Source: Klebsiella phage LPKP23. From it: DNA of 64,000 nt. The stretch lies in sequence record PV112478.1. One strand, written 5' to 3'. Numbering within the stretch: the stretch's first letter is position 1; the number at the start of each line of letters is the position of its first letter. The position numbers and the translations under genes are program-made. The notes under the pieces were generated by a model. The model worked only from the letters and a program-made list of their open reading frames with translations, did not search any database and was not told the DNA's origin. Positions 15,579 to 16,302 of the stretch are shown here, one piece after another.

Positions 15579-15686
15579 TGGTTGATAGGTACCGAATCGA
15601 ACGGCTATCTCAGGCTCCCATGTTAAGGCGCCCCTCGTATGAGAGGGGGCCTAATGCCCGCGCTTTACCTTTAAGCTAGCCTATCA
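15579..15686 (-). tRNA. Atypical tRNA-like gene (108 nt), with canonical acceptor, D and T arms and encoded CCA, but an expanded (~55 nt) anticodon/variable region
   Basis: Acceptor tgatagg/cctatca gives 7/7 pairs. D arm gctt-aaaggta-aagc carries GG. T arm gccg-ttcgatt-cggt. The central region forms hairpins cgggc/gcccc and cccctc/gagggg instead of a 7-nt anticodon loop. Confidence 0.4.
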
Positions 15687-15939
15687 TTGAATAGGTTCCC
15701 TAGCACTCAATGAGTATCATCTACACCAGCAGCGCCCGGTGTTTAGCCGAGATGCAATTATGCTTAAATGGGTCGTATTTAACGGCTCATTTATTCGTCG
15801 ATGATTTACGTAGGGATAACAAGGAGACATCCCCCTCAGCATGCCGAGGTCAACTTTTGCCTTAGGTCAAGATTAACTCTCCGCAACATTAAGTCGCCTG
15901 GTTAACCCCTACCTTTAGTCTAAGCAAGATGTCATTATT

Positions 15940-16029
15940 TGGCAGAGAGTGAGAGATTCGAACTCTCGGTACCCTTTCGGATACACTCCCTTAGCAGGGG
16001 AGCGACTTAAACCGCTCATCCAACTCTCT
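15940..16029 (-). tRNA. tRNA-Ser(GCU), type II, CCA encoded
   Basis: Acceptor agagagt/actctct. Anticodon loop cuGCUaa. Long variable arm. T loop ttcgaat. Confidence 0.7.
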
Positions 16030-16038
16030 ATTAAAATG

Positions 16039-16112
16039 CGACTCTTCCAGGACTTGAACCTGGGACCTACAGCTTAACAGGCTGCCGTTCTAACCAACTG
16101 AACTAAAGAGTC
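16039..16112 (-). tRNA. tRNA-Asn(GUU)
   Basis: Acceptor gactctt/aagagtc. D arm gttc-agttggtta-gaac. Anticodon loop cuGUUaa. T arm ccagg-ttcaagt-cctgg. Confidence 0.7.
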
Positions 16113-16118
16113 ATTATT

Positions 16119-16193
16119 TGGCGGTGCTACGGAGAATTGAACTCCGGTCTCCTCCGTGACAGGGAGGTATCCTTTCCACTAGACGATAGCACC
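16119..16193 (-). tRNA. tRNA-Asp(GUC), CCA encoded
   Basis: Acceptor ggtgcta/tagcacc. Anticodon loop cuGUCac. T loop ttcaatt. Confidence 0.7.
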
Positions 16194-16201
16194 TTTTTGT
16201 T

Positions 16202-16302
16202 TGGTTGTTCCCTTCCGGATTTGAACCGGCAACCTCCTGCTAAGCAGTGGGCGGCGCAGTGGCCGCCGATGCAGGCGCTCTACCTAGTTGAGCTACGAGA
16301 AC
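16202..16302 (-). tRNA. Atypical tRNA-like gene (~101 nt) with an enlarged anticodon region. The anticodon stem cctgc/gcagg encloses a 30-nt insertion.
   Basis: D arm gctc-aactaggta-gagc. T arm gccgg-ttcaaat-ccgg. CCA encoded. Between the AC-stem halves lies atcggcggccactgcgccgcccactgctta, which itself forms a ggcggc/gccgcc hairpin. The acceptor pairing is imperfect. Confidence 0.35.

Follow-up and report, generated by a model that had tools for sequence, protein, structure and literature searches.

The 64,000-nt stretch of Klebsiella phage LPKP23 DNA (PV112478.1) analysed here, referred to below as the window, is part of a ~300 kb Klebsiella jumbo phage and harbours two oversized tRNA-like genes, A and B, in which a GC-rich hairpin and its linkers occupy the place of the anticodon loop. 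B is embedded within an array of nine canonical tRNA genes and A follows the array, all tRNA genes lying on the minus strand (Table 1). The array region is 99.9% identical to that of vB_kp_MJ359, and the relatives of the window comprise FBKp24 (Maaswegvirus), KpLz-2_45 (Siatvirus), Centimanus and six records named 'Serratia phage Kp*'. The curated annotation of FBKp24 lists the hallmarks of a nucleus-forming phage, namely a homolog of the shell protein, a tubulin and split multisubunit RNA polymerases.

Both elements are recognised as tRNAs by covariance model. The Rfam tRNA model (RF00005) has a curated gathering score of 29 bits; B reaches 38.9 bits and A 34.4 bits, with 28 and 36 nt, respectively, placed as an insertion within the anticodon loop. 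The score of A comes from a search of 1.1 kb, since the Rfam speed filters drop A in large searches. ARAGORN misses both genes in its default mode and, with the intron option, calls both at their exact coordinates, A as tRNA-Pro(tgg) with a 33-nt intron and B as 'tRNA-Ser(gct)' with a 23-nt intron. The same intron mode made no tRNA call in 1.9 Mb of shuffled sequence, obtained by shuffling the window 30 times with its dinucleotide composition preserved. An earlier note, made from the letters of the DNA alone, had described two tRNA-like elements at these places and had named covariance-model scores below the noise threshold as what would speak against them; both elements are confirmed, on the minus strand and above the threshold, with the end of B refined to 16303 (102 nt). 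The GenBank record of MJ359 (PQ182779) already labels A and B 'tRNA-OTHER'; they are unannotated in FBKp24, Centimanus and KpLz-2_45, and likewise in most genome records of the clade.

Element A has the layout UGAUAGGC-UA-[GCUU AAAGGUA AAGC]-G-CGGGC-(40 nt)-GCCUG-AGAUA-[GCCG UUCGAUU CGGU]-ACCUAUCA-ACCA and element B the layout UGUUCUCG-UA-[GCUC AACUAGGUA GAGC]-G-CCUGC-(30 nt)-GCAGG-AGGUU-[GCCGG UUCAAAU CCGGA]-AGGGAACA-ACCA. The D arms consist of 4 bp with loops of 7-9 nt that carry GG, the variable loops are 5 nt long, the T loops read UUCGAUU in A and UUCAAAU in B, and the core tertiary positions U8, A14, G18-G19, A21, G26 and U54-U55-C56...A58 are all present in both. The tRNA fold departs from the canon in the anticodon loop: neither element has the 7-nt loop with U33 and a purine at position 37, and its place is taken by 40 nt in A and 30 nt in B. 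Both follow a common plan: three linker nucleotides on the 5' side, then a GC-rich hairpin whose loop has 6 nt, then 9-10 linker nucleotides on the 3' side. In A the 5' linker is AUU, the hairpin is AGGC-CCCCUC / UCAUAC / GAGGGG-C-GCCU (15626-15652) and the 3' linker is UAACAUGGGA (15616-15625); in B the corresponding parts are AUC, GGCGGC / CACUGC / GCCGCC (16250-16267) and CACUGCUUA (16241-16249), and the insert is made up of two tandem 12-mers, GGCGGCCACUGC and GCCGCCCACUGC. The cloverleaf with its hairpin folds at -38.9 kcal/mol in A, compared with -39.1 kcal/mol for the minimum free energy (MFE) structure, in which the A hairpin is also present; for B the values are -35.5 and -36.7 kcal/mol, respectively. 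The 30 nt enclosed by a CCUGC/GCAGG stem and folding into a GGCGGC/GCCGCC hairpin, as the earlier note had read them in B, are exact. The good acceptor stems, D arms with GG, T arms and encoded CCA that it had listed are likewise all found in the two genes, with one refinement, an extra A before the CCA.

This refinement concerns the acceptor end. In the seven canonical array tRNAs that encode a CCA, N73-CCA directly follows a 7-bp stem. A and B read ...C72-A-A-CCA, with one extra A before the CCA, and a U precedes G1; the extra nucleotide is common to both and is seen in none of their nine canonical neighbours. Because the 5' U pairs with the first of the two A's, the acceptor stem comprises eight pairs, which is also how ARAGORN draws both elements, with ACCA as the 3' end. 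The mature RNAs are likely to carry this 8-pair acceptor stem with a 4-nt ACCA overhang. RNase P measures against the RCCA end, and a cut one position further upstream is therefore expected in A and B. The acceptor/T branch of A is of the 8/4 type with 12 pairs (eight including the C.A, and a 4-bp T stem), and that of B is of the 8/5 type with 13 pairs. In Centimanus the B branch is perfect: its two junction mismatches have become G-C (in place of the G.A of the acceptor) and A-U, restoring pairs 7:66 and 49:65. The T loop of the same gene has U54:A58 swapped to A54:U58.

Table 1 Coordinates of the tRNA-like elements A and B, their parts and the surrounding features in the window
Feature	Position	Strand	Evidence or remark
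Element A, tRNA-like gene, 108 nt	15579..15686	minus	Rfam tRNA, ARAGORN intron mode
A acceptor 5' strand UGAUAGGC	15679..15686	minus	pairs with ACCUAUCA (15583-15590): 7 Watson-Crick pairs and C.A at the eighth
A 40-nt loop	15616..15655	minus	closed by CGGGC (15656-15660) / GCCUG (15611-15615), 5 bp
A encoded ACCA 3' end	15579..15582	minus	similarity to FBKp24/Centimanus ends right after
Element B, tRNA-like gene, 102 nt	16202..16303	minus	Rfam tRNA, ARAGORN intron mode
B acceptor 5' strand UGUUCUCG	16296..16303	minus	pairs with AGGGAACA (16206-16213): 7 pairs and G.A
B 30-nt loop	16241..16270	minus	closed by CCUGC (16271-16275) / GCAGG (16236-16240), 5 bp
B encoded ACCA 3' end	16202..16205	minus	
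Nine canonical tRNA genes: Met/Ile2-CAU, Leu-UAA, Arg-UCU, Tyr, Gln-UUG, Gly-UCC, Asp, Asn, Ser-GCU	15940..17422	minus	ARAGORN, Rfam, GenBank annotation
Strong intrinsic-terminator-like hairpin	14876..14901	minus	predicted

Each of the 12 clade records in GenBank has both A and B, which were found nowhere else in the GenBank phages, IMG/VR or the metagenome loci examined; GenBank phages, IMG/VR and metagenomes also yielded no insert-less or divergent alleles of either gene. The canonical tRNA sets differ between otherwise close phages of the clade. Among six array variants A and B are found in every one, Arg, Gly and Ser in five, Asp in four, and Tyr and Gln in three. When the window is compared with FBKp24 and Centimanus, identity in the flanking coding sequences (CDSs) is 77-83% and the 253-nt spacer that separates tRNA-Ser from A is essentially unalignable, whereas A, insert included, is 97% identical and B 99% and 93%. 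The alignment with homologous phages that the earlier note had recommended thus finds the inserts conserved together with the tRNA bodies. The four loop substitutions are all at unpaired positions (two in the A hairpin loop, one in the B hairpin loop and one in the B 5' linker); the stems of the A loop are invariant among the phages and its variation is confined to the hairpin loop. The inserts are under purifying selection and the two genes are retained across the clade.

Several familiar kinds of insert or RNA were considered and rejected. Group I introns run to ~200 nt or more and possess a conserved P3-P9 catalytic core; the inserts of 23-33 nt are, as the earlier note had remarked, too short for this class and gave no Rfam intron hit at E values up to 10. 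A bulge-helix-bulge motif consists of two 3-nt bulges on opposite strands, 4 bp apart. On inspection A has an AUU followed by the 4-bp AGGC/GCCU, but the opposite strand presents a 1-nt bulge and a 10-nt linker, and B has no 4-bp central helix; the insert positions are 33/34-34/35, compared with the canonical 37/38. A dispersed palindromic element or miniature inverted-repeat transposable element does not fit inserts that are single-copy in the window and whose IMG/VR matches are at chance level. ARAGORN found no transfer-messenger RNA (tmRNA) and Rfam no match beyond tRNA, which disposes of a tmRNA- or YrlA-like identity. An antisense or guide role was rejected as well: there is no complementarity of at least 13 nt to 364 kb of phage sequence, except for one 17-mer in FBKp24 gp087. 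This 17-mer is an exact 17-nt copy of the window-type A hairpin (CCCCTCTCATACGAGGG, minus strand) within the gp087 CDS (L023 33024-33040; FBKp24 83,024-83,040), where ~0.001 matches would be expected by chance per genome; the A gene of FBKp24 itself has another hairpin loop.

Our favoured reading, held tentatively, is that A and B are tRNA-derived genes for stable, tRNA-shaped, non-decoding RNAs, in other words tRNA mimics, rather than spliced pre-tRNAs. They would be transcribed together with the phage tRNA operon, RNase P would cut them one nucleotide upstream of the standard tRNA site and leave the 8-pair acceptor stem, and exonucleases would trim the 3' side to the encoded ACCA. Since all core tertiary positions are intact, the products would fold into the tRNA L-shape, with the GC-rich hairpin and 9-10 nt of single strand in place of the anticodon loop. 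With that loop replaced they cannot read a codon, and they would act by way of the tRNA body with its CCA end, of the insert on display, or of both. As decoys or sponges they might titrate some factor that senses the shape of a tRNA, such as a tRNA-handling enzyme or a host defence or toxin directed at tRNAs; alternatively, they might be tRNA scaffolds that keep the hairpin stable and present it.

The relics in the two bodies point to their possible origins. A looks to be derived from a Pro(UGG)-type tRNA, of which AUU...GGGA would be the residue, and B from a Thr-type class I phage tRNA, its body resembling prophage tRNA-Thr(UGU) with the 7-nt loop replaced. No excision product of B has a canonical loop, and the best candidate, CUGCUUA, has U37. 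A has no C1:G72 pair, which is present in the tRNA-Pro of phage rV5. E. coli tRNA-Pro carries C1:G72 and the enterobacterial prolyl-tRNA synthetase needs it. The arrays of Erwinia-type jumbo phages contain tRNA-like genes with a tetraloop where the anticodon loop should be, UUCG on a 7-bp stem in one (L009 4883-4958) and AGAA on a 4-bp stem in another (L014 8597-8667); these cannot decode, and tRNA-shaped non-decoders therefore belong to the repertoire of the group. Of the possibilities that the earlier note had listed, the unusual isoacceptor is unsupported because a loop of 30-40 nt cannot decode, while the decoy or regulatory RNA seems to us more probable than the intron.

The mimic has to be weighed against a number of contrary points. 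Taking 33 nt out of A leaves AUUGGGA, which has U33 and G37 and is the loop of a textbook tRNA-Pro(UGG), and a Pro-UGG tRNA would fit the phage's tRNA set for A-ending codons. RtcB and Tpt1 are encoded by some clade members, the host RtcB may provide a ligase, and that A and B are left unspliced is something we infer. Part of the conservation of A and B could stem from recombination or from a recent common ancestor, the clade being young and narrow; with only 3-4 haplotypes, A gives no covariation signal and the observed score of B is reached in 96 of 500 shuffles. As for a decoy target recognised by complementarity to the phage genome, none emerged beyond chance except the one 17-mer. Between an intron and a non-decoding mimic we lean, on the computed evidence, towards the mimic.

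A possible, if less probable, account is that A and B are pre-tRNAs with short protein-spliced introns, the halves of which are joined by an RtcB-type ligase (that of the phage where present, otherwise that of the host), so that A would yield a decoding tRNA-Pro(UGG) and B a second tRNA. The Pro loop that ARAGORN's intron mode rebuilds for A is perfect and resembles the UUUGGGA of rV5 tRNA-Pro; Erwinia-type relatives have an Arg(ACG)-like gene in which the loop UUACGAC is followed by a hairpin insert of 40-48 nt; FBKp24 encodes a full-length RtcB (Pfam E = 4e-120) as well as Tpt1/KptA (E = 3e-42); the Lak megaphages have conserved, unexplained tRNA introns (PMC6784885); and 8/4 tRNAs are able to decode in E. 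coli (PMC5389517). This evidence is countered by the lack of a bulge-helix-bulge motif and by insert positions that differ from 37/38, by B, which yields U37 loops only and has a 13-pair branch, by the want of C1:G72 in A, and by inserts that are as conserved as the exons. CCA makes up just 15% of the phage's Pro codons, a codon usage that is not discriminating. The annotation of FBKp24, in which most proteins have no assignable function, names no EndA/Sen endonuclease, and Pfam gave no endonuclease candidate among the neighbours of RtcB or of the array. To our knowledge bacteria have no splicing endonuclease, and neither they nor their viruses possess a mechanism for the removal of such short introns. 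Furthermore, A and B do not co-occur with a phage RtcB, which is encoded in 5 of the 12 clade records and absent from 7, including MJ359. In MJ359, taken as the phage of the window, and in KpLz-2_45 RtcB is missing with both flanks kept, and their A and B genes are identical to those of the RtcB-bearing KpSz_1. Judging from these genomes, phage RtcB is not a co-requirement for A and B. We regard it as doubtful that a protein-dependent, non-self-splicing form of tRNA splicing operates in this bacterial virus, in which some endonuclease would excise hairpin introns that have no bulge-helix-bulge, phage or host RtcB would reseal the ends, and A would become a working 8/4 tRNA-Pro(UGG).

That A and B are dead tRNA genes, in whose anticodon loops a GC-rich palindrome or a local duplication landed and which persist because the clade is young, seems quite unlikely to us. 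The tandem 12-mer duplication in the B insert would suit such an origin, as would arrays in flux (HNH endonuclease insertions, tRNA gain and loss), the many degenerate tRNA-like sequences in the arrays of relatives and the restriction of both genes to one narrow clade. Decaying genes would, however, hardly be the most consistently kept members of the array, present in six variants out of six, nor remain 93-99% identical next to an unalignable spacer and CDSs of 77-83% identity; the substitutions avoid the stems, Centimanus mends two mismatches and swaps the 54:58 pair, the inserts are single-copy and not dispersed, and the non-standard 8-pair/ACCA end is common to A and B. It is scarcely credible that the two are ordinary tRNAs mis-folded on paper, with a type II variable arm or a selenocysteine (Sec)-like architecture and a normal 7-nt loop somewhere along their length. 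B does have the 8/5 acceptor/T branch of bacterial tRNA-Sec, and the tail of its insert can form CUGC-UUA-GCAG, which is variable-arm-like. Rfam and ARAGORN nevertheless put the extra sequence inside the anticodon stem and leave a variable region of 5 nt; the inner hairpin loops measure 6 nt, a 6-bp D stem and a UCA anticodon are wanting, and the alternative folds, on inspection, leave at least 9 nt unpaired between the D and anticodon arms. As the extra nucleotides lie within and not after the anticodon stem, A and B are neither type II nor Sec-like, the known identities that the earlier note had named as ones that would refute its reading if a proper alignment revealed them.

The closest described parallel to A and B is found in the Lak megaphages, the tRNA genes of which contain conserved 'enigmatic' introns (Devoto et al. 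2019, PMC6784885). In both cases a very large phage has oversized tRNA genes that tRNA finders in bacterial mode cannot classify. The insert lies in the anticodon region, is highly conserved in sequence from one genome to another, falls into none of the Rfam intron classes and has no known splicing mechanism. The family is defined descriptively, and A and B, which are too long for bacterial models and have a conserved anticodon-loop insert, answer to its description. They differ in that the Lak phages are Prevotella megaphages with an alternative genetic code, that one Lak intron is itself tRNA-like, and that insert-less alleles exist in Lak and none were found for A and B; the 8-pair acceptor is unreported there, and the likeness rests on description. 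A second parallel is provided by the 8/4 and 9/3 allo-tRNAs and irregular tRNA polycistrons, which include 8/4 tRNA-Ser and tRNA-His in phage clusters (Mukai et al. 2017, PMC5389517); some of these irregular tRNAs are translation-inactive and have been proposed to be regulatory or associated with toxin-antitoxin systems (PMC5389517). They share with A the longer acceptor offset by a shorter T stem, as well as the setting in phage tRNA clusters. Allo-tRNAs, however, combine a normal 7-nt anticodon loop with a long variable arm and a D arm of the Sec kind (6-bp stem and tetraloop). In A and B the D arms are normal, the variable loops are those of class I and 30-40 nt take the place of the anticodon loop; B, moreover, is of the 8/5 type. 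With bacterial tRNA-Sec only the 8/5 branch is held in common, and only by B, the 6-bp D stem, long variable arm and UCA anticodon being absent. The novelty that the earlier note had suggested for the elements is correspondingly reduced: the 'tRNA-OTHER' labels in PQ182779, the Lak introns (PMC6784885) and the phage 8/4 tRNAs (PMC5389517) all precede it.

The pre-tRNAs of archaea and eukaryotes, which are processed by EndA/Sen together with RtcB or Trl1, resemble A and B in their short, self-pairing anticodon-loop insert, and RtcB and Tpt1 are present in some clade members. A and B differ from them in having no bulge-helix-bulge and an insert that is not at 37/38, in that no endonuclease homolog was found and RtcB is dispensable in the clade, and in that B gives no canonical product. 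Bacterial and phage tRNA genes with group I introns likewise have an interrupted anticodon loop, and they differ in size and in the catalytic core, to which A and B have no match. Non-coding RNAs built on a tRNA-like body include the Y-RNA-like YrlA of bacteria and phages, the tRNA-Other of B. cereus, the stable RNAs C and D of phage T4 and engineered 'tRNA scaffolds'. Like the mimics proposed here, they use the tRNA body for processing, stability or recognition and do not decode, and the engineered scaffold carries a foreign hairpin in place of the anticodon loop, the same architecture as that of A and B. YrlA is different, being circularly permuted, ending in the equivalent of the anticodon stem and binding Ro; no Ro/TROVE protein is annotated here and Rfam matched A and B to no tRNA-like RNA family.

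The arrays and their surroundings hold further irregular elements. The terminator-like hairpin downstream of A probably ends a transcription unit that includes the array, A and ~680 nt of RNA 3' of A that is free of open reading frames (ORFs); the interval from the terminator to the array contains no sizeable ORF, and no ORF of at least 50 aa fills 14830-15420. Between the tRNA-like elements and the terminator lies ~450 nt of GC-rich ORF-free RNA (window 14876-15340, minus strand), within which a sub-threshold match to the Pistol ribozyme at 14972-15016 (19.5 bits, where 34.5 are needed; E = 0.67) is probably due to chance. Another element, at ~15340-15425 (minus strand), lacks an anticodon arm but has paired ends like those of an acceptor and a good T arm (GCAGG-TTCGACT-CCTGC); it is 85-92% conserved in FBKp24 and Centimanus, and the fold predicted for it is weak (z = 0.37). 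A block of ~150 nt directly after the CCA of A (15425-15574), bounded by the 11-nt inverted repeat TGGACTTTAAA / TTTTAAGTCCA, is absent from FBKp24 and Centimanus, where CCTTTACAATACT directly adjoins the CCA of A; it seems to represent a small insertion or else a structured RNA module. On the other side of A, the spacer to tRNA-Ser (15687-15939, minus strand) is ORF-free, its ends can pair (GACATC / GATGTC, then TCC), and its layout resembles that of the ~150-nt acceptor-plus-T-like elements in the arrays of the Erwinia-type relatives. Further away, ARAGORN calls a 'suppressor' tRNA(UUA) at 20413-20496 (minus strand), annotated as tRNA-Sup-TTA in FBKp24. Its acceptor stem and its D stem both contain mismatches, position 37 is occupied by a pyrimidine, and it is not among the Rfam hits at the gathering threshold; it represents a further irregular tRNA-like gene in a phage whose ORFs look standard-code.

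HNH endonuclease genes are located within the tRNA arrays of Centimanus (L003 3102-3563) and KpLz-2_45 (L004 2766-3221), and these insertions, together with the differing tRNA sets, suggest that homing endonucleases drive the turnover of array content. Pfam identified no RNA enzymes among the neighbours of the array. The Arg(ACG)-like gene of the Erwinia-type relatives is present in copies at L008 8358-8476, L016 8359-8478 and L037 6859-6978, has a D loop that does not carry GG and is labelled 'tRNA-Ile' in some GenBank records. FBKp24 encodes, in addition to RtcB and Tpt1/KptA (loci L027 24955-26199 and 41106-41669; L081), two macro-domain proteins and an NAD salvage set. Its gp056, annotated as 'putative tRNA nuclease WapA', was discounted as a candidate, the name having no Pfam, NCBIfam or PDB support; the homolog in the window (26677-27018, minus strand) is a small protein, the C-terminus of which looks, by eye, like a hydrophobic membrane anchor.

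Conserved short inserts of this kind have been known from phage tRNA genes since 2019, unexplained and so far only from uncultured megaphages; with A and B they are now found in Klebsiella phages that have been isolated and can be cultured. The clade offers natural RtcB-positive (FBKp24, KpSz_1) and RtcB-negative (MJ359, KpLz-2_45) variants, which makes the question of splicing directly testable. Splicing, if true, would amount to a new RNA-processing pathway and to the first case of enzymatic tRNA splicing from the bacterial world, and it would explain the 'enigmatic introns' of the Lak phages. If A and B are mimics, conserved tRNA mimics would join the toolkit of the nucleus-forming jumbo phages, which are candidates for phage therapy, and would point to a host or phage factor that reads the shape of tRNA.

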